Below are positions 5,281 to 35,382 of a DNA stretch of 38,887 nucleotides, one piece after another. The DNA is from a virus (lineage: Duplodnaviria; Heunggongvirae; Uroviricota; Caudoviricetes), in the IMG/VR virus record IMGVR_UViG_3300032070_000730. One strand, 5' to 3'. Positions within the stretch are counted from its first letter, which is position 1. The number at the start of each line of letters is the position of its first letter. Both the position numbers and the translations under genes were made by a program. The notes below the pieces were generated by a model. That model was not told the DNA's origin. It saw only the letters and a program-made list of their open reading frames with translations, and searched no databases.

Positions 5281-6135
5281 TTAGATTTTCATATTCTTAC
5301 TTATGTGAAATGCTATGATAGATTTTCGTGGAATTGCTGGGTTTATTAGTTTTATGAATCGTTTTGTTTCTTTACTACCACCTAAAACCGATACATGAAA
5401 CATATCAACGCAATCTTTTCTTAAAGAAATTTTAAACCCTAACGAAACAATCAATTTCTTTATTATTGTTATCTTTTTTTCATTTTTTTGGGAGATAATT
5501 GCTCTATAATATCCCTCTTTTTTATATAAACAACCATCACCATCGAAAAATCCTTTTAAATAAAATATTTTACTGTTGTTATTTTTAAACCATGAAATGT
5601 TAAATTTTTTTATCCATTGAATCAAAAAAATTGAATTACATTCAATCAAATAACCAAACCCTTGTTTTATATTTATATCATTTTTTATACAAATGCGGGG
5701 GGTTAAACCTATATTTTTTAAACATTTTTTAAATTCATTAGCAAATTCTTTATCTTTTGTTAGTAATCCAATTTTATAATATTTTCTTTTTTTGAAATTT
5801 ATCCATCCATCACTATGAATAGCCCCCAAAACATAAAATAAATCCTTTGTTTTATCTAAATTAAAACTTACCTTCCATTTCATTTCACAGTATTTCGAGC
5901 AAAAATTATGTTTATTTCTTTTTTTGGCAGATGGCGGTCTATAAAAAAATTTTTTACAGAAATTACATTCAATACTTTCATTCCATCTCTTTGTTTTACT
6001 AATTTTTCTATCCCATTTGTTAAAACATTTGCTCGAACAGAAATTGTGTTTTAAACCCGATTGCTTTCGTTGTTTTATTGTAGATTTGCGTCTAACAAAA
6101 AGAATTTTACAGAAATCGCACCTTAAAATTGGCAT
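5281..6135 (-). CDS. free-standing LAGLIDADG homing endonuclease with N-terminal Cys motifs
   Basis: Two motifs, YVLGAIHSDG and YLKGFFDGDG; CxxC...FCS repeats; antisense insertion between two paralogous structural genes. Confidence 0.85.
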   Translation of the reverse strand: MPILRCDFCKILFVRRKSTIKQRKQSGLKHNFCSSKCFNKWDRKISKTKRWNESIECNFCKKFFYRPPSAKKRNKHNFCSKYCEMKWKVSFNLDKTKDLFYVLGAIHSDGWINFKKRKYYKIGLLTKDKEFANEFKKCLKNIGLTPRICIKNDINIKQGFGYLIECNSIFLIQWIKKFNISWFKNNNSKIFYLKGFFDGDGCLYKKEGYYRAIISQKNEKKITIIKKLIVSLGFKISLRKDCVDMFHVSVLGGSKETKRFIKLINPAIPRKSIIAFHISKNMKI

Positions 6136-6226: not shown

Positions 6227-7111
6227 ATGTCAATTATAAGAGATATATCGTTTTTGGCGTTGGGTATAATGATTACAGTATCGTTTTTAGTCGGTATTTA
6301 TTATACAATTTCACCAAAACCACAAGTGATTTATGAACAAAAAGACCCTTCTCAACCAATATTAGAAGTAGTCAGTAAAACCGAATATTATGCTGGCGAG
6401 AGTGGTCAGGTCATAATAAGAACGAGCGATTATCTTGGCAATCCATTGAATGCCACATGCAATGCTTCTATCATATTTCCGAACAAGACTTTCTGGTATA
6501 TCGATACTTCTCTTTCACCGTCTTCAATTACTGGGAATTATTACAAAGAAGTGACAATTCCAGATGTTCTTGGAGTCTATGAATATTCTTTTGTATGTGA
6601 TATAGATTTTTATGGAAAAAGCACGATAGTCAAGAGGTCTTCAAGTTTCCATGTATCAATCGCATACCAAAAGTTCCAAGAGATAATCGATAAACTCAAT
6701 GCGTTGAACAACACACTGATTCAAATCAATCAAACTAACTACGAGCAGTATCAGAATTTGACGTATATGATAAACAACCTTTCTTATAGTATGAATAACA
6801 ATTTTACCTATACCAATTCGCTGATTCAGAACATCTCTGTATATATAAACATGACAAATGTGACCGATGATATTAAAACCAACATAACAATACAGATTAA
6901 TGATTTGAAAAGTTGGACTGATAATTGGTTCAAGACGATAGAGACAGATATTTTCAATCTTGAGCAAAGATGGATAGACCTGCTTAACAATCTGTTGATG
7001 AAACTGCTTGGAACTTCAAAGTCACTACAAGATGTTGTGGGTCAGACTACTGGTGTAACCCCAACGCCAGACTGTTCTTTATTGAATAGAATACTTGGGA
7101 CTTGTCCGTAG
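6227..7111 (+). CDS. GTEY-repeat protein with N-terminal TM and C-terminal coiled coil
   Basis: KTEY...CNASIIFPN...SFHV followed by Asn/Ile-rich heptads. Confidence 0.7.
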   Translation: MSIIRDISFLALGIMITVSFLVGIYYTISPKPQVIYEQKDPSQPILEVVSKTEYYAGESGQVIIRTSDYLGNPLNATCNASIIFPNKTFWYIDTSLSPSSITGNYYKEVTIPDVLGVYEYSFVCDIDFYGKSTIVKRSSSFHVSIAYQKFQEIIDKLNALNNTLIQINQTNYEQYQNLTYMINNLSYSMNNNFTYTNSLIQNISVYINMTNVTDDIKTNITIQINDLKSWTDNWFKTIETDIFNLEQRWIDLLNNLLMKLLGTSKSLQDVVGQTTGVTPTPDCSLLNRILGTCP

Positions 7112-11711: not shown

Positions 11712-12545
11712 ATGAAAAAATGTATCGATTGTGGTAATTTTATTCATGGTAAAAAATATTGTCTAAAATGTTATCTTAAAAATCATAATCCAGTTAAAAA
11801 AGGGGTTAAAATAACTTGGGGAGATAAAATTTCAGATAGTATAATGAAAAATCCAGTAGATATTGAAAGAAGAAGAATTCAAGGAAATAAAATGAGATTT
11901 ATAAATACGGGTAAAAAAAGAACAAAAAAAGCACGAAAAAAATATAGTCAAAATCTAACAAAAAATTGGCAAGACCCAGAATTTAGAGATAAAAGAGTAA
12001 AACAAATTAAAATAGGTAATTTGAAAAAGGATATGACCAAAGTAAAAGAAAGAATGTTAACAAATAATCCTATGAATAATCAGAAAATAAGAAAAAAACA
12101 TTTGAAAATAATGAGAAGCGAAAGGATGAGAAAAATAAAAAGGGAAAATGCACAAGAACGATGGAATGATGAAAATCAACGAGAAAAGTGGATAAAATCA
12201 ATATTGAAAATCTTATTTAAAAGACCAACAAAACTTGAAAAAGGTTTTATCAATTTTTTTGATACATATAATGTTCCATTTAATTATTGTGGGAATGGTT
12301 CTTTGATAATAGGTGGAAAATGTCCTGATTTTGTTGAAAGTAATGGAAAGAAAATATGTTTAGAAGTTGGAAATAAAAGAGAAAAATCTGTGCCAAGAAA
12401 AAATAGAATATATAAAAATTGGCAGGAATATGAACAACAAAGAATTTCTCACTTTGCTGGTTTTGGGTGGAAATGTTTAGTTTTATGGGAAAATGAATTG
12501 GAAAATGAAGTATTATTAAATAATAAAATCAAGAGGTGGTTATAA
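11712..12545 (+). CDS. homing-type endonuclease (CxxC...CxxC, NPM repeats, PD-(D/E)xK-like nuclease)
   Basis: KCPDFV...ICLEVG; GWKCLVLWENE. Confidence 0.7.
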   Translation: MKKCIDCGNFIHGKKYCLKCYLKNHNPVKKGVKITWGDKISDSIMKNPVDIERRRIQGNKMRFINTGKKRTKKARKKYSQNLTKNWQDPEFRDKRVKQIKIGNLKKDMTKVKERMLTNNPMNNQKIRKKHLKIMRSERMRKIKRENAQERWNDENQREKWIKSILKILFKRPTKLEKGFINFFDTYNVPFNYCGNGSLIIGGKCPDFVESNGKKICLEVGNKREKSVPRKNRIYKNWQEYEQQRISHFAGFGWKCLVLWENELENEVLLNNKIKRWL

Positions 12546-12775
12546 TTTTACTCAATTTTCATCTGTGGCTTTATTTAACCATGTCTTTGATATTCTGGGC
12601 TAAAGTTATAATCACTTTCAGACAGCACAGGCAAGACCCGAATGAAAGAAGATGGAATCTGATACTCAACAGTATTTTTGCTCTTTTATTTTCTTTTGCT
12701 TTTATTGATTTAGTTACAACGATACCCCAAATAATTAAAGTCCTGATAATGATTAGAGATATTGCGGGTGGTTAG
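12536..12775 (+). CDS. two-TM membrane protein
   Basis: Two hydrophobic segments. Confidence 0.6.
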   Translation: MVIILLNFHLWLYLTMSLIFWAKVIITFRQHRQDPNERRWNLILNSIFALLFSFAFIDLVTTIPQIIKVLIMIRDIAGG

Positions 12776-13228
12776 TTGCGTTACATCGAGACTTTGTTAC
12801 TTCAGTTTAGGAGTGAAACTGTGCGTAGCAATTATGGGGGAGTGTTGAATCTGGCGATGGATATAGTCAAAGGAGAAGATAGACCAAATCAGGTTCTTCT
12901 CCGTAAACTTGTATGGATAAAAAACAACACGACTGAAAAATTGAGGACTAACTACTATATTGTGATAAACACATTGGCAAGAAAAATACATCATAATCTT
13001 GATGCACCGATTGAGATTAAGGTCGGAAGAGGAAGAACTGTAGAATATTCTCTCGGAGAACTGATAGCAGAGATTGAAGAGGCACACATGAAAATAAACG
13101 ATGTCGTCAGGGAAGTCGCAAAGAAATATTCGCTTGATATTCCGTTCAGAAAATCTGGCGGTGAGTGGGAAATCCCAGATATAGAAAAGTTAATGAAAGA
13201 GAAAACGAATGAGAAATTAACTGGGTGA
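12776..13228 (+). CDS. hypothetical protein upstream of the ATPase
   Basis: TTG abuts the upstream TAG; 150-aa ORF. Confidence 0.65.
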   Translation: MRYIETLLLQFRSETVRSNYGGVLNLAMDIVKGEDRPNQVLLRKLVWIKNNTTEKLRTNYYIVINTLARKIHHNLDAPIEIKVGRGRTVEYSLGELIAEIEEAHMKINDVVREVAKKYSLDIPFRKSGGEWEIPDIEKLMKEKTNEKLTG

Positions 13229-13255
13229 TTTTAAAATGTATGAGGTGATATATGA

Positions 13256-14092
13256 TTGGTAGATAGTTTTGCATTGAAAGCATTTCCAGTATTGACACAA
13301 ATTTCAGCAGGCGACCTTGAATGGCATGTAGATTAATAATCTTAATTGGTTATTAAGCATAAATCCCGTTCAGGAAGACCAGATAGTAGATAAAATGCAA
13401 CAATCAGAGGCATTCGCAAAATGCATAAGCCTTAATAAAACTCCATTGTTCTTCGAGTTCTTGGATTATAAAACAAGATACAGGGAGAATGTTGGTGTAG
13501 AAGTAAAGGGCGGAAATAAGAATATCTTACCGCATCCCGAACAGGTAAGTCAACTGGCGTAACAGCATTATCAAAATATACATCACATTTGAGTTGCGTT
13601 CCATTTACTTTATGGCATGTATGTGCGAATGAAATAGAATATCTTGAGAAATTGAAGACTCCATCTTTGCCATACGGTTCTGTCTTCCAGATAGATGAGC
13701 AGACCGAAACACATACTGGTGCAGGGTCATATTCGGAAATGCAAGTATTGGAAGATATGTCTAATATCATCGCTAAAAATCAAATTCATACTTTTTGGTG
13801 CATGGAAGAGAATACAGTTATCAAAACATTAAATGGGTTAATTAAAATTAAAGATTTACCAAATCCAGAACCTTTTAGAGTATGGGGCTTTAATTTTGAT
13901 AAAAAAAGACCAGAACTGGATTTAGCAGTAAAAACATATAGCGGGGAAAAAGAGATTTTTAATATAGTAACAGAAACAGGCGAAGAAGTTAAAGCAACAA
14001 GAGAACATAGGTTTTTTATACTTAATGGCAGTAAAATACAAGAAAAGAAAGTAGATGAATTAAGAGTTGGGGATAAATTAGTGATGATATGA
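13256..14092 (+). CDS. P-loop ATPase N-half + N-intein, spliced join(13256-13331,13363-13515,13536-14092)
   Basis: TTG after gaggtga. The spliced product has VEVKGGTRTGKST (Walker A) and VFQIDE (Walker B), then a Hint domain from Cys at 13799. A packaging role is inference. Confidence 0.85.
13332..13362 (+). other. 31-nt BHB/BHL intron
   Basis: Central helix ATGT/GCAT (one G-U), bulges AG|A and AA|A, 9-bp inner stem TTAATAATC/GGTTATTAA (one G-U); 31 nt is exactly the frame shift needed (HVD-PVQ). Confidence 0.75.
13516..13535 (+). other. 20-nt BHB intron inside Walker A
   Basis: GG/CC outer pairs, central helix GCGG/CCGC, bulges AA|A and AT|C, inner stem TAAGA/TCTTA; removal gives GGC GGA ACC CGA ACA GGT AAG TCA. 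Confidence 0.93.
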
Positions 14093-14970
14093 AAAAAATA
14101 TTAAAAAGACCAAAACAATCTGAATTTATGCATAATACCCGTGCTAATCCAGATTCTCCTTATAACAAAAAATCATGTAGAGATAAGATAAGTAAAAATA
14201 CAACAAAACAATGGAAAAATGCATCTATAAGAGAAAAAATGATAGATGGTATTAAAAAAAGTTGGACTAAAGAAAGATGTAATAAAATGAAAGGCGATAA
14301 TAACCCCGCCAAATCATTACAGGCAAGAAATAAAATAAGCCAAAAATTAAGTGGAAAGAAAAAACCAAAATGGTTGATTGAAAATCTTGCTGAAATACAT
14401 AGAGGAAGACCAGTAAAAACAGCAATAAGAGAAAAAATAAGGAAAACACAATTAAAAAAAGCAGATGAATACAGAAAAAGAAAAATATTATTTCATCAAT
14501 TACACCCAGAAAAACATCCAAATATGTTATTAAGAAGAAATCATAAAACGAAAATTGAAGAAATTTTAATAAAAGAATTAAACAATCTTGGTTGTGTAGA
14601 AAAACAACAAATTAAAACATGTAAAAAATTAAAAGATTTTGTATTTAATTTTTACATAAAAACATATAATGGGTTTAGATTTCCAGATATTAACTTTCCT
14701 TTATTAAAAATAATAATAGAATGTGATGGAAATTATTGGCATAAAAATAAAAAATACGAAAGAAACAGGGATTTAGAATTTAAAAATTTAGGATATAAAA
14801 TATTGCATTTTTCTGGTTATGATATTAAAAATAATTTAAATGAGGTAAAAGATGTTGTGAGAACTGAAATAATAAAAAAAATAGAAAGAATTGGTGAAGG
14901 AAAAACATACGATATAACGACACAAAAAAATCATAATTTTATACTTGGAAATGGCATTTTAGCCCATAAT
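13799..14970 (+). mobile_element. split intein: IntN 13799-14092, endonuclease-IntC 14089-14970
   Basis: Starts CMEENT, has block B ATREHRF and ends YDITT..NHNFILGNGILAHN|C; halves are in different frames with an ATGA overlap and RBS-like gtgatga. Confidence 0.85.
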
Positions 14971-15579
14971 TGCCACCCGCATGAATTTGTGGGTCGTAAC
15001 TCCCAAACCATCTAAAGATGGGGGAAATTGGGTCTTGAGTGCTACGGAAAGAACTTTGAGTATAAATTAATCAGATGCATCCTTTATAATATTTCAGTGT
15101 CAACTCTATCAAAAGTTCCAATGGGCATCGTCGTAATTCCTATCGGTTGGCTTTTCAAGTGCGGTCTTTTTGCTGAACCGACGATTTACAATGGAAGAAA
15201 AACTATAATCACCTGTATAAAAGATGTCTGTCCGAGATACGGAAAGTGTCAGGAATTTATGGCACAGTATGAATACAAGAAAGACAATCAGATTGAATTG
15301 ATAAGGACAAGACAATTTGGTGAAAGAGAGTTTAATAGATTAGAAACAGCAGAAAAAATCGCAAAAGACAAGAACTTTCAGATGTGCAGGACAAAAGATG
15401 AAAGGATGTCAATTGCAAGACTTTTAGTTCAATTCGGGACTCCAGAAAAACTGATAGTAGAAAGCGTTGCTCTTGCAAGGGCTATCGATAAAGGAAGGGT
15501 CGATATTGATTCATTGAGGAAACTTGGCGGGAAAAGAACGACAGAAGGAAATGCTGAAGAAGAAAAGGCAGTCACCTAA
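14089..15579 (+). CDS. NUMOD3/DUF559-like endonuclease + C-intein + ATPase C-half, spliced join(14089-15006,15028-15579)
   Basis: RFPDINF..IIIECDGNYWH nuclease; the C-extein CHPHEFVGRNSQ joins LGLECYGK after intron removal. Confidence 0.8.
15007..15027 (+). other. 21-nt BHB intron
   Basis: Central helix TCCC/GGGA, bulges AA|A and AA|T, inner stem CCATC/GATGG; in frame and contains the TAA at 15013-15; outer helix weak. Confidence 0.85.
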
Positions 15580-15596
15580 TTCTGTGAATTTTTTAA

Positions 15597-15618
15597 AAAT
15601 TTTAGAAAAATTTAAATA
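15597..15618 (+). promoter_or_regulatory. shared promoter motif heading the X-His array
   Basis: aaattttagaaaaaTTTAAATA, TATA at 15611-15618. Confidence 0.65.
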
Positions 15619-15671
15619 GTTTAGTCTATATATAATTCTTATAGAAAATGCTTTAAAAGAGGTTAGTATAA

Positions 15672-15815
15672 ATGGCACACAAATATTTGAAACATAAGTT
15701 GACTAAACATAGGACTGTCTTCATCCCAGAGGGGTTTGAATTCGTAAAAGCAGAGCCAGACAAAGAACAACCAAACGTCGTAAAAGTTGTCTTTAAAAAA
15801 AGAGGTGCAAAATAA
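15672..15815 (+). CDS. array protein MAHK, 47 aa
   Basis: Hand-translated; RBS gaggt; not in ORF track. Confidence 0.7.
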   Translation: MAHKYLKHKLTKHRTVFIPEGFEFVKAEPDKEQPNVVKVVFKKRGAK

Positions 15816-16148
15816 GTGGTTCATAAATTCCATCTTGGAAGAGAATATGTGACTGAAAGATTCTACCCGCCAGAACTTTTCCATCCAAAAAGTTTCAGAA
15901 CAATAAAAAGCGGTGGATACAAATTTACAATCGGAGTCCCTAAACAGGCTTTAAAAGTAGACGGATATTTGCCATTGTTTAAGGGAAAGAAATTCACAGC
16001 AGGAACAAGAGTTCAAAGGATGCTCCATCCAGTCGGAAAGTTCGAGAGAAAATATCCGAGAATCTGGAAGGAATTGAAAGCATCCAAGACAAAACTTGTA
16101 ACAGCGACACCGACCCATGAGCCAAAATACGGTCTTGTGGCTGGTTGA
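15816..16148 (+). CDS. array protein MVHK, 110 aa
   Basis: GTG start abutting TAA. Confidence 0.75.
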   Translation: MVHKFHLGREYVTERFYPPELFHPKSFRTIKSGGYKFTIGVPKQALKVDGYLPLFKGKKFTAGTRVQRMLHPVGKFERKYPRIWKELKASKTKLVTATPTHEPKYGLVAG

Positions 16149-16190
16149 TTTTATTTTTGAGGGCAGTCGAAATGGGTAGAGGTAATTAGA

Positions 16191-16304
16191 TTGGCACATA
16201 AAATAATTAAAACAGTCACAAAAGATATAGTCCCAGAGGATTACTATCTGATAGATTGGTATAGAAAGAATAAGAAAATGGAATTGGTGTTTGAAAAGGG
16301 ATAA
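16191..16304 (+). CDS. array protein MAHK, 37 aa
   Basis: TTG start after gaggt; not in ORF track. Confidence 0.65.
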   Translation: MAHKIIKTVTKDIVPEDYYLIDWYRKNKKMELVFEKG

Positions 16305-16306
16305 TC

Positions 16307-16564
16307 ATGGTTCATAAGATGAAAACAGTTGGAGATGTATGGGAATTAGAATCGAGTAGTGAGACTGTTGCATCAGATGCATTGAGTAATATTTCTGCAC
16401 AGGCTTTGCACGGCGATAAAAAAATGGTCAATTTTCTTGAAAAGGTCTTTAAAGAAAACTGGAAAGATATCAAGCCAAAACTTGAGACCGAAGGAAGTGT
16501 TTGGTATGTTTGGTGGATGGATGGCGTTCATAGTTTCATGCGTATGCAGATTAAAAAGAGGTAA
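16307..16564 (+). CDS. array protein MVHK, 85 aa
   Basis: ORF with motif. Confidence 0.75.
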   Translation: MVHKMKTVGDVWELESSSETVASDALSNISAQALHGDKKMVNFLEKVFKENWKDIKPKLETEGSVWYVWWMDGVHSFMRMQIKKR

Positions 16565-16568
16565 TTGA

Positions 16569-16706
16569 ATGGTTCATAAAATTGTTCAAACAAAAAAGAA
16601 AAGATGGATAGTCTTCAAGCAAGTCCCAGAGAAAATAGGGAAGTTTGGAGAATGGAAAATCATTGGCAATAAGGCGACCGAAGCGGAAGCAAAAGCACTT
16701 ATTTAA
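16569..16706 (+). CDS. array protein MVHK, 45 aa
   Basis: Hand-translated; not in ORF track. Confidence 0.7.
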   Translation: MVHKIVQTKKKRWIVFKQVPEKIGKFGEWKIIGNKATEAEAKALI

Positions 16707-16720
16707 AGAGGAAGATGAAG

Positions 16721-16945
16721 ATGCATCTCTTCAAGAACATGTTTAAAGACACATACAAAGAAAGCAAGAAAGATTTAGATATGCAAGAAAAAATGAATCT
16801 TGCATTCATCAAAGGATTGCCAAAAACAAGTGGATTAACAGTAAAAGAATTCGGAAGAGAATCAGAAGAGTTTGCAGTGCCAGAAGTCATTCCGACAGAA
16901 AAAATAAAAAAATATAAAAAAAAGATGAAAATTCATGGTTCATAA
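16721..16945 (+). CDS. array protein MHL, 74 aa (alternative start 16715)
   Basis: ATG CAT CTC; ends HGS* inside the next motif. Confidence 0.6.
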   Translation: MHLFKNMFKDTYKESKKDLDMQEKMNLAFIKGLPKTSGLTVKEFGRESEEFAVPEVIPTEKIKKYKKKMKIHGS

Positions 16946-17258
16946 ACAAAAGAAAATGACAGAAGAAGAAAAAGAGTGGGCAAGACGAATGAAAGCATTC
17001 GGAGTAGACATAACAAAAGAATTGACACCAGAGCAAGAATATGAAAGAGAAAAAAAAGAATGGGAAAAAACTGCAAAAGAAGCCACGCAAATGTATGAGA
17101 CAGCACGAAGAATTGCAATCAAAGGAAGGGCAATGTTCAGAAAAGGAAAGAGAATGTTCAAAGAGAGATTCGAGGACAAAAGCAAGAGAAGACCGATAGC
17201 AGTATATGTCAGACCGAAAGATACTGGGAAAAAAGAAATAGTTTATGGTGAGTGGTAA
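16935..17258 (+). CDS. array protein MVHK, 107 aa
   Basis: ORF with motif. Confidence 0.75.
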   Translation: MVHKQKKMTEEEKEWARRMKAFGVDITKELTPEQEYEREKKEWEKTAKEATQMYETARRIAIKGRAMFRKGKRMFKERFEDKSKRRPIAVYVRPKDTGKKEIVYGEW

Positions 17259-17503
17259 TGGTTCACAAATTAAAGGAAGTTTATCGTCTCCAGTGGAGAC
17301 CTGTCAATCCAGATGGGAGTCTTCCAGTCGGAATGAAAGAAGAACAGTGGATTACAGACCCGACATTCAAACATATAAATGAAATGAATGCTTGGGATAA
17401 ATTCATGCAGTCGTCCAACCAAACTATCTATGCAGATATGCGTTTGGTTAAAGATGGAAAAGAAGTTTTTAAAAGATTATGGAAGGACAGAATTAAAAAA
17501 TAA
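17258..17503 (+). CDS. array protein MVHK, 81 aa
   Basis: TAATG overlap; CAC His codon. Confidence 0.75.
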   Translation: MVHKLKEVYRLQWRPVNPDGSLPVGMKEEQWITDPTFKHINEMNAWDKFMQSSNQTIYADMRLVKDGKEVFKRLWKDRIKK

Positions 17504-17515
17504 TGGCGATGATTG

Positions 17516-17884
17516 ATGGTTCATAAAATAAAAAAATCAACTGAAGATATTTGGGAGAAATTAGATAGTTTATATACAGAAGGCATTCCAAAATATTTGA
17601 AAGTAGTCAGCAAGAATAAAATCCAGATAAAAGCAGGAGAATGGGAAGGTGCTCCTGTAAGATGGATTACGGTAACTCCTAAAGATGTCATTGATTATTA
17701 CAGACCAAACAGGCGAATGGGGGCTTCAGAGATTATGAGTGGTGCAAGGACGCTTGCAGGTTTTACTACTGACTGGAGAATGGTTGATAATATGGCGAAA
17801 GAATCTCTTGAGATATTCAAAATTTTGAACAGAAGTGCATTGGAAAAAGAAGGCAAAAAATATGGGATGGAGTTGAAGGATTAA
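17516..17884 (+). CDS. array protein MVHK, 122 aa
   Basis: ORF with motif. Confidence 0.75.
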   Translation: MVHKIKKSTEDIWEKLDSLYTEGIPKYLKVVSKNKIQIKAGEWEGAPVRWITVTPKDVIDYYRPNRRMGASEIMSGARTLAGFTTDWRMVDNMAKESLEIFKILNRSALEKEGKKYGMELKD

Positions 17885-17885
17885 A

Positions 17886-18077
17886 ATGTCACATAAAATA
17901 TATCATGAACATATTAAATTGAACGATGGTAGTGTCCTCTCAATATTTTTTAACACGGAGAATAATCTTCTGGTAGTTGATAAAGTCAGGAAAGACGGGA
18001 CTGGTGGAAATGAATTTATAAGGATGGATGTTTCAGGGATAGAATTGCCATCTAAAAAGGAATTAAAAGGTAATTAA
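17886..18077 (+). CDS. array protein MSHK, 63 aa
   Basis: ORF with variant motif. Confidence 0.7.
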   Translation: MSHKIYHEHIKLNDGSVLSIFFNTENNLLVVDKVRKDGTGGNEFIRMDVSGIELPSKKELKGN

Positions 18078-34490: not shown

Positions 34491-34512
34491 ATTGGCTTTC
34501 TATTATATATGT

Positions 34513-35382
34513 ATGAGAAAAATCCTTTTGCTTTTGGTCATGTTTCTATTTGTTCTTACTTTTCAGCAGGTCAAATCATCATCTTTAATTAATTGGTGGA
34601 AATTTGATGAATGTTCTGGAGATTTAGTCGCTGATAGTGTCGGAGTAAGTGATGGAACAAGGTATAATTTTGATAATGGCTGGGTTTCTGGTGTAAGTGG
34701 TTGTGCTTTGGAGTTTGATGGAACAGATGATTATGTTAGTATGAATAATGATTCTTCGTTGAATTTTGGTTTAAATAATTTTTCAGTTTCATTTTGGATT
34801 AGAATTGATAATGAAGATTTTTATGGAGATGTTGTTCACAAATCAGGCGGTGAGTTTGGTGATATTGGATGGGGATTCTATACAACATCATCAGATGTAA
34901 TGAGTTTTTTTGCTCAAGATACGGATGAAATAGGGTATATAGACCTTGAATCGTCAGTAGATATACAAGGAACTGGATGGCATTATATAACAGCAACAAG
35001 AGAAGGAAACACATTTAAACTTTATATTGATGGTAATTTGGATATTTTTGATGACACGCAGACAGTTGGTGATTTAGATGTAGTAGATAATTTAACAATA
35101 GGAACACCTTCACTGCTTCGTGCATATTTTAATGGGTCAATAGATGAAGTCAAATTTTATGACTATTATTTATCTGGTAATGAAATCATAGCAGAATATA
35201 ACAGTTATTTTCCACATTATCACCCTTTAAATGATACTTTATCTGATGTTGGTCAAGGTGTTGGAAATCTTTTGTTGAATATGTCACCACCACTCACAAT
35301 CTTAATTATAATCCTTGCTGTTGTAAGTATGGTCGGGTTCATAATATCGTCAGTCGGAAGAAGAATTGGAGAGAAGATATAA
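34513..35382 (+). CDS. LamG/concanavalin-A-like domain fused to a coat-like C-terminal module
   Basis: WWKFDE...ALEFDGTDDYV...FSVSFWI...WHYIT...LYIDG...FNGSIDEVKFY, then LNDTLSDVGQGVGNLL...GFIISSVGRRIGEKI. Confidence 0.85.
   Translation: MRKILLLLVMFLFVLTFQQVKSSSLINWWKFDECSGDLVADSVGVSDGTRYNFDNGWVSGVSGCALEFDGTDDYVSMNNDSSLNFGLNNFSVSFWIRIDNEDFYGDVVHKSGGEFGDIGWGFYTTSSDVMSFFAQDTDEIGYIDLESSVDIQGTGWHYITATREGNTFKLYIDGNLDIFDDTQTVGDLDVVDNLTIGTPSLLRAYFNGSIDEVKFYDYYLSGNEIIAEYNSYFPHYHPLNDTLSDVGQGVGNLLLNMSPPLTILIIILAVVSMVGFIISSVGRRIGEKI

Follow-up and report, generated by a model that had tools for sequence, protein, structure and literature searches.

Here, we describe a naturally split intein whose C-terminal half is encoded in one open reading frame (ORF) with a putative homing endonuclease, found in the IMG/VR virus record IMGVR_UViG_3300032070_000730 (38,887 nt; this whole stretch is called the window, and coordinates refer to its plus strand unless stated otherwise). 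The record represents an uncultivated virus-like element whose host is probably archaeal. We are fairly confident that the split is genuine and selectively maintained, and that it lies at the canonical endonuclease-insertion point of an intein within a conserved gene for a putative P-loop ATPase. Besides the intein, this gene is interrupted by three short inserts that fit the bulge-helix-bulge (BHB) motif of archaeal introns, so that its full-length product is predicted to need three RNA excisions in addition to protein splicing in trans.

The interrupted gene and its intein

The N-terminal intein half (IntN; 13799-14092, comprising 97 aa to 14089 and the stop) was delimited by its Pfam match, its splicing residues, alignment to relatives and the ratio of nonsynonymous to synonymous substitution rates (dN/dS). 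It begins with Cys1 (codon TGC, 13799-13801), carries the block B residues T-R-E-H and ends in GDKLVMI (VDELRVGDKLVMI), followed by the stop codon TGA at 14090-14092. The next frame, ORF2 (14089-15015, 308 aa), lies one base back, and its ATG at 14089 overlaps the IntN stop as ATGA. Residues 1-256 of ORF2 (14089-14856) make up the nuclease, with a Lys-rich helical N-region and then a Vsr/I-Bth0305I-type (DUF559) core, and these are followed by the C-terminal intein half (IntC; 14857-14970, 38 aa) with blocks F and G (DITTQKNHNF...ILAHN). His-Asn are residues 293-294 (N294 codon 14968-70), and the frame reads ...YDITTQKNHNFILGNGILAHN and then Cys+1 at 14971. All residues of a class 1 intein (C1, T-R-E-H, HN and C+1) are present. 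An earlier note, made from the letters of this DNA, had described the 97-aa IntN, its stop, the ATGA overlap and the HN-then-C end of IntC, and its coordinates and lengths proved exact.

The Pfam profile Intein_splicing matched IntN with an E-value of 8e-12 and 45.7 bits (cut-off 35.8), and the C-terminus of ORF2 with an E-value of 4.7e-6 and 26.9 bits. IntC also matches the C-segments of DnaX/DnaE inteins in the PDB. IntC is disordered on its own (predicted local distance difference test score, pLDDT, <50) and, in the AlphaFold2 (AF2) monomer model of ORF2, residues 271-308 are unstructured, as expected of the C-piece of a split intein. When IntN with 5 extein residues was modelled against ORF2 residues 150-308, the complex prediction reached 0.89, compared to 0.03 for the best control; 51 of the 78 solved complexes and 2 of the 108 mismatched pairs attained this mark. 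The runs agreed in at least 84% of contacts, with a partner pLDDT of at least 84, and the confident predicted interface was limited to ORF2 residues 256-295, with no intrusion of the nuclease core. Because split-intein complexes are in the PDB, this score shows likeness and not binding, and the predicted fit between IntN and IntC may reflect their resemblance to solved split inteins.

By modelled fold and catalytic residues, the nuclease part of ORF2 is a putative Vsr-like/EDxHD homing endonuclease and is predicted to be active. In the AF2 model of ORF2, for which 20 relatives were used, residues ~150-265 form a confident core (pLDDT mostly at least 90). The best fold match of this model in the PDB is 3R3P, the catalytic domain of I-Bth0305I (probability 1.00, TMt 0.86, root-mean-square deviation 2.1), and it also matches 3HRL and Vsr (1CW0). 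Among 20 family members, D200 and E211 are invariant and D213 and H218 are present in at least 90%; ORF2 has all four. Pfam DUF559 matched ORF2 with an E-value of 4.6e-7 and 30.1 bits (cut-off 20.6), which upholds the DUF559 half of the NUMOD3/DUF559-like assignment proposed in the earlier note, whereas the NUMOD3 half is not confirmed, with no Pfam match to it at E<=1.

ORF2 shares 61% amino acid identity with a free-standing nuclease encoded on the related contig L005, where the gene precedes an ATPase gene that has no intein and lacks an IntC at its own end. Since the two proteins are homologous from their first residues (MKKILKRP... in ORF2, ...QILKRPEH... in L005), ORF2 begins as a gene of its own. 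The N-terminal half of the nuclease is 88% identical to the L005 gene at the nucleotide level, compared to 70-72% for the flanking host genes, which points to recent exchange of a functional nuclease module between lineages. This 88% identity covers only 14096-14523, the putative DNA-binding half, while the catalytic half (14524-14856) had no blastn match, a pattern that suggests module shuffling within the nuclease.

Exon 1 of the putative ATPase gene (13256-13331) opens with a TTG start 9 nt past GAGGT and 6 nt past the full GAGGTGAT; in the related contig L002, the same TTG start opens an uninterrupted 261-aa ORF. Exon 2 (13363-13515) ends inside the Walker A codons, and exon 3 (13536-13798) carries the remainder of Walker A and Walker B (FQIDEQ) before reaching ...IHTFW, the end of the 164-aa N-extein. 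The C-extein starts in exon 4 (14971-15006; CHPHEFVGRNSQ), with Cys+1 at 14971, and continues in exon 5 (15028-15579), which runs to the stop and brings the C-extein to 195 aa. In-silico removal of the three BHB introns and the intein gave a product of 164 + 195 = 359 aa, exactly reproducing the count of three RNA inserts and 359 residues in the earlier note. When compared to uninterrupted homologues (315-361 aa), this predicted product showed no internal gap at any of the 4 junctions, in agreement with that note's view that three RNA excisions plus protein splicing are needed. Intein removal yields ...IHTFW-CHPHEFVGR..., the same pattern as in uninterrupted homologues, most of which have the Cys+1 natively. 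Walker A (GGTRTGKST, after intron removal) and Walker B (VFQIDEQ) are invariant in the homologues. Searches with the host protein gave no Pfam, PHROG or PDB profile match, and its AF2 model (pLDDT 50) was too poor for a structure search. Because of the missing family match and the poor model, the name ATPase is a putative one taken from the Walker A/B motifs, and the same caution applies to calling the gene essential.

From this layout, we infer translational coupling, splicing of both RNA and protein, and nuclease activity. Precursor 1 would consist of the N-extein (164 aa) and IntN (97 aa), made from a message from which two BHB introns had been removed. Translation would restart at the ATGA overlap to give precursor 2, which would contain the Vsr/I-Bth0305I-type nuclease, IntC (38 aa) and the C-extein, the latter being complete (195 aa) only after the host tRNA-splicing machinery had removed the 21-nt BHB intron. 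IntN and IntC would then associate via the HINT fold and trans-splice to the 359-aa protein with the native ...IHTFW-CHPHEF... junction (peptide IHTFWCHPHEFVGR), and the released, non-covalent complex of IntN and nuclease-IntC would act as the homing enzyme on intein-less alleles. On this view, a free-standing nuclease gene would be half-way through its absorption into an intein, having lost its 3' stop while keeping its 5' stop/start boundary.

Reality of the break and rival explanations

To retrieve relatives, we ran a full HMMER search with ORF2 and collected the encoding contigs; a blastn search against a phage collection and an IMG/VR search returned no relatives of the window. Exactly this ORF2, with an upstream IntN ORF overlapping it by 4 nt, is on record in 8 contigs, at least 6 of them from different samples. 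The junction is base-identical in L002, L003 and L004, whose flanks differ by 3-10%. The split is real and sits at the canonical endonuclease-insertion point; in 4 lineages (the window, L007, L009 and L010) that are only ~35-75% identical, IntN stops at one shared alignment column. Across lineages, dN/dS was 0.19-0.38 for IntN and 0.05-0.23 for IntC at a synonymous rate (dS) of 0.8-1.6; for the N-terminal half of the nuclease it was 0.29, and dS over all three parts ranged from 0.3 to 1.6. The shared IntN end together with the low dN/dS indicates that the split state is old and under purifying selection, which excludes a recent frameshift and argues against decay.

It is highly improbable that the intein is really contiguous, be it through an assembly or sequencing error, frameshifting, TGA read-through or a BHB intron across 14074-14092, even though an A7 run adjoins the junction and the element uses frame-restoring micro-introns elsewhere. 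The frame of ORF2 is closed by TAA at 14074-76 and open from 14077, and that of IntN is closed by TGA at 14090-92, so that a switch between them is possible only within 14077-14089 (attagtgatgata). These 13 nt contain neither a homopolymer nor an X_XXY_YYZ slippery heptamer. The A7 run (14092-14098) begins at the last base of the IntN stop, which removes the concern over a homopolymer at the junction raised in the earlier note. Of the two events that this note had named as able to undo the split, a one-base error is ruled out because at least 6 independent assemblies share the junction and because relatives ~50% diverged vary in junction geometry, with the same IntN end being followed by a 68-nt spacer in L007 and by a complete, separate nuclease ORF in L010. 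Ribosomal frameshifting, the other, lacks a slippery site in the window and is impossible in L007 because of its spacer. Reading TGA as a sense codon was ruled out, as TAA follows four codons on. Our strict BHB scan found no motif bridging the IntN/ORF2 junction, and a relaxed scan yielded many weak chance candidates in this AT-rich DNA, none with full central, inner and outer helices and none leading to a plausible product. The best of these, 20 nt long at 14065-14084, lacks an outer helix and has weak A/U pairs only, and its excision would remove the conserved GDKLV strand; for a 29-nt candidate at 14020-14048, the shifted frame runs into TAA 14074-76 and conserved intein residues are lost. 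A search for proteins of at least 374 aa carrying the C-extein found none, which is weak evidence in itself.

Rather unlikely, but to be taken seriously, is a conventional split intein in which the C-precursor starts at GTG 14857 and full-length ORF2 is mainly a nuclease with a redundant IntC tail left after stop loss. This explanation overlaps with that of a fused splicing partner, and both products may exist. The candidate start (14842-14859) comprises an in-frame Shine-Dalgarno (SD)-like GAGGT (14842-46), a 10-nt spacer and GTG 14857, which is ORF2 codon 257. In genes of the window, GAGGT(G) typically lies 6-9 nt ahead of the start codon, and the 10-nt spacing is longer than in the other genes listed. 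GTG 14857 aligns exactly with the GTG start of a separate IntC ORF in L010 (GGTGA 8 nt upstream) and coincides with the beginning of the predicted IntN interface at residue 256, and the nuclease-IntC fusion at a second site in L010 (IDEQ/TETH, see below) also has AGGTGA and a GTG before IntC. By these signals, a nuclease-free IntC precursor may also be made. In contrast, L007 and L009 have no SD-like motif or equivalent start before IntC, and in these relatives the fused protein must therefore be the splicing partner. Moreover, Val codons and purine-rich stretches are common in AT-rich coding DNA, so that the signal in the window could be a relic or due to chance.

Decaying selfish DNA that does not splice, leaving either an ATPase pseudogene or a two-piece, non-covalent enzyme held together by the intein halves, is improbable as well. 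In its favour, the gene has four interruptions and its splicing is a prediction; in addition, some fractured genes assemble without splicing, as for Aeh1 NrdA in work cited within PMC2677866. However, the splicing residues (C1, T..H, HN and C+1) are intact, dN/dS is well below 1 for both halves in lineages with saturated dS, the predicted spliced product and uninterrupted homologues correspond residue by residue at the 4 junctions, and the layout has been retained across several lineages and sites.

Returning to a maintained split intein with a nuclease fused to IntC, a number of points weigh against it. RNA splicing, protein splicing and DNA cleavage are predictions from sequence and models, the host protein family is not assignable and its AF2 model is poor, and the Pfam score of IntC (26.9 bits) lies under the curated cut-off of 35.8. 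All contigs with exactly the layout of the window are identical across the intein, which is why, in evolutionary terms, the split is supported by relatives that carry other nucleases or use other sites. Upstream of ORF2, the SD-like GTGAT is only 3 nt before ATG 14089, and a second ATG at 14128 corresponds to the start that the gene caller gave the L005 nuclease. Finally, if GTG 14857 is used, the fusion protein might not be the main splicing partner.

Related loci and known systems

The contigs retrieved with ORF2 display a series of layouts. At the W/CHPHE site, which is the intein site of the window, L007 has IntN, the 68-nt spacer and a nuclease of a second type (HEG2) fused to IntC; this fused nuclease is related to a free-standing gene in the window at 11712-12545 (E-value 5e-14). 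At the same site, L010 has IntN, a TTGA overlap, a free-standing HEG2-type nuclease (related to window 11712-12545 with an E-value of 4e-13) and a separate 47-aa IntC ORF, which starts from its own GGTGA and GTG and has an 11-nt overlap with the nuclease, as in a classic fractured gene. In L008, a single ORF joins a LAGLIDADG domain to the same IntC and runs off the contig at its 5' end, and L005 and L009 have no intein at the W/CHPHE site. At a second site in the ATPase gene (IDEQ/TETH, in Walker B), L009 and L010 carry a related split intein in which a zinc finger and a Vsr-type nuclease are fused to IntC, with an overlap of 10 nt in L009. The stages seen are thus a nuclease gene free outside the host gene, free between IntN and IntC, and fused to IntC, for two nuclease families and at two sites. 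L010 (266-2312) combines two related split inteins in one ATPase gene, with the nuclease fused at IDEQ/TETH and free-standing with a separate IntC ORF at W/CHPHE. Two candidates for further fused cases, P0116/L011 (GC-rich) and P0019/L008 (LAGLIDADG with IntC), were set aside, as their ORFs are open to the contig start and cannot be scored as split or contiguous. The database also holds contiguous inteins with DUF559-type nucleases (P0045, P0108 and P0124).

Dassa, London, Stoddard, Schueler-Furman and Pietrokovski described 26 fractured-gene loci in 2009, each with a nuclease ORF that stands apart and has a stop codon of its own; in 15 of the 26, this ORF overlaps a separately started IntC by 6-69 bp (PMC2677866). 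Like these loci, the window has N-extein-IntN, a Vsr-like nuclease and IntC-C-extein at one viral locus with overlapping ORFs, and is split at the canonical endonuclease-insertion point; L010 at the W/CHPHE site has exactly the classic fractured-gene layout. Unlike them, the window encodes nuclease and IntC in one ORF (ORF2, 14089-15015), so that the free-standing nuclease ORF is lacking here, and the contrast with free-standing nucleases drawn in the earlier note holds against loci of this type. The window further differs in its probably archaeal host and in the BHB introns of the same gene. According to step IIIa of the 2009 model, loss of the flanks of the nuclease gene could put the nuclease in frame within the intein, a form that was predicted and not reported (PMC2677866). 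Judged by its ORF layout, the window shows the half-way form predicted by this model, with the 3' boundary gone and the 5' boundary kept. The published literature that we searched contained no natural split intein with a nuclease fused to one half.

I-Bth0305I (Taylor et al. 2011, PMC3239194; 3R3P), founding member of the family of Vsr-like homing endonucleases that was first recognised in fractured genes, shares the catalytic fold, DUF559, and the conserved acidic and His residues, and likewise has an extended N-terminal putative DNA-binding region before the C-terminal catalytic domain. In contrast to I-Bth0305I, which is encoded in a group I intron (PMC3239194), the nuclease of the window is fused to IntC, is 17% identical to 3R3P and has a predicted activity. 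Like maxi inteins (PI-SceI and the contiguous P0045, P0108 and P0124), the window places a nuclease between blocks B and F of the HINT fold, and the excised complex of IntN and nuclease-IntC would equal a maxi intein after splicing. Unlike in maxi inteins, a break in the chain separates IntN from the nuclease, so that splicing must occur in trans. Compared to the split inteins Npu/Ssp DnaE and gp41-1, the halves (IntN 97 aa, IntC 38 aa) are alike and IntC is similarly disordered alone and predicted to fold on IntN, whereas the IntC of those inteins has no N-terminal domain and the DnaE halves are at distant loci.

Ideas on the origin of endonuclease domains and of split inteins have rested largely on the model built from the 2009 fractured loci, for which the window would now supply the predicted intermediate. 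Together with its relatives, it offers a natural comparison set in which the same intein site has a free-standing, a fused, a different or no nuclease. An IntC with a 256-aa N-terminal cargo bears on split-intein engineering, and one gene predicted to need removal of three tRNA-type introns together with protein trans-splicing would be a compact test bed in an archaeal setting.

RNA micro-introns, mobility and neighbouring genes

Micro-introns were called by the BHB rule of a 4-bp central helix between two 3-nt bulges, with the cut after the second bulge base. Intron 1 (13332-13362, 31 nt) consists of atgt, aga, a 24-nt hairpin, gcat and aaa. It is precisely missing in L002, which reads EWHVDPVQED, and its removal restores the frame. 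Intron 2 (13516-13535, 20 nt; gcgg, aaa, a 13-nt hairpin, ccgc and atc), detected in the strict BHB scan, lies inside Walker A and is precisely missing in L002, L003 and L004, which read KGGTRTGKST. Intron 3 (15007-15027, 21 nt; tccc, aaa, ccatctaaagatgg, ggga and aat) carries an in-frame TAA (15013-15), and its removal gives NSQ-LGLE as in homologues. The counterpart of intron 3 in L005 has 31 nt at the identical site and shows a compensatory hairpin change (ctatc/gatag). All three inserts fit the BHB motif, with outer helices of only 0-3 bp and no standard outer pair at intron 3; by sequence they qualify as hBHBh' archaeal introns and are predicted to undergo tRNA-type splicing. An Rfam search of the whole window at the gathering threshold, and of 12500-16500 at E<=10, found no group I/II intron or other family, indicating that the inserts are not ribozyme introns.

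Yokobori reportedly described BHB introns in archaeal protein-coding genes in 2009, namely in cbf5 of Crenarchaeota. The inserts of the window resemble those of cbf5 in the 4-bp helix with two 3-nt bulges, the fixed cut position and the restored frame, but they differ in that the gene is viral-type and has three introns of 20-31 nt in addition to an intein.

Further small inserts lie close to intein sites in the relatives. The intein-less allele of L005 has a canonical 21-nt BHB insert at VH/PH (6353-6373; gtgc, ata, a 14-nt hairpin, gcac and aac), 6 nt downstream of the point at which the intein is inserted in the window. Without this insert, the L005 sequence reads W-VHPHEF, which is precisely what the uninterrupted gene of L009 encodes. 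Such an insert would break the target of a homing nuclease and may therefore confer immunity. At L005:6200-6290, the TETHAGAGSY codons, where L009 and L010 have their IDEQ/TETH intein, are flanked by two inserts of ~29 and 22 nt. The shorter one conforms to the BHB rule, and GAGSYTEM is restored on its removal, while no canonical BHB cut sites could be fitted to the ~29-nt insert just after IDEQTE. The IntC-bearing ORFs of this intein family (window 14971-15015; L007:1398-2027; L008:245-640; L009:2501-3340; L010:266-1006 and 2169-2312) all stop ~5-14 codons past the +1 residue, so that a short insert seems always to follow the intein closely. BHB micro-introns within a few codons of intein sites may be immunity elements that break nuclease targets; if true, this would tie archaeal mRNA introns to homing-endonuclease conflict. 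As a broader proposal that we consider speculative and, taken as a whole, doubtful, one virus lineage would keep several stages of free-standing nuclease genes becoming intein domains, with the fused protein and IntN forming an active homing enzyme and the micro-introns providing immunity.

The intein of the window lies within a tract of 100% identity to L002, L003 and L004 (13679-15779), a candidate for homing with co-conversion. Inside these ~2.1 kb there are zero differences, compared to 3-30 differences per 100 nt in the flanks and 9-11 in the 52 nt just upstream. Upstream, the last mismatch falls at 13666-13678; downstream, mismatches resume at 15780 in L002 and past 16000 in L003. This tract fits recent homing with co-conversion, although general recombination would also produce it.

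Nuclease genes vary around the ATPase gene as well. HEG2 (11712-12545), the free-standing gene of the second type mentioned above, has a C-terminal CPDF...E motif and a GC content of ~0.25, and it is precisely missing in L002 and L003. The short spacer preceding the ATPase start appears to serve as a landing pad for nuclease genes, because it is empty in the window (~13229-13255), whereas its counterpart holds an HNH gene in L003 (1611-2180) and a Vsr-type nuclease gene in L005 (4953-5741).

Elsewhere in the window, a 284-aa ORF on the minus strand (5281-6135) has an N-terminal zf-FCS zinc finger and LAGLIDADG_3 domains and probably encodes a homing endonuclease. Downstream of the ATPase gene, 15672-17886 and beyond contain a run of small ORFs starting with M-(V/A/S)-H-K. 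Lastly, a 296-aa ORF on the plus strand (34492-35382) carries a Laminin_G_3/concanavalin-A-like lectin domain (E-value 1.9e-22) and also matches Pfam Toxin_R_bind_N (E-value 2.5e-13), possibly representing a receptor-binding protein.

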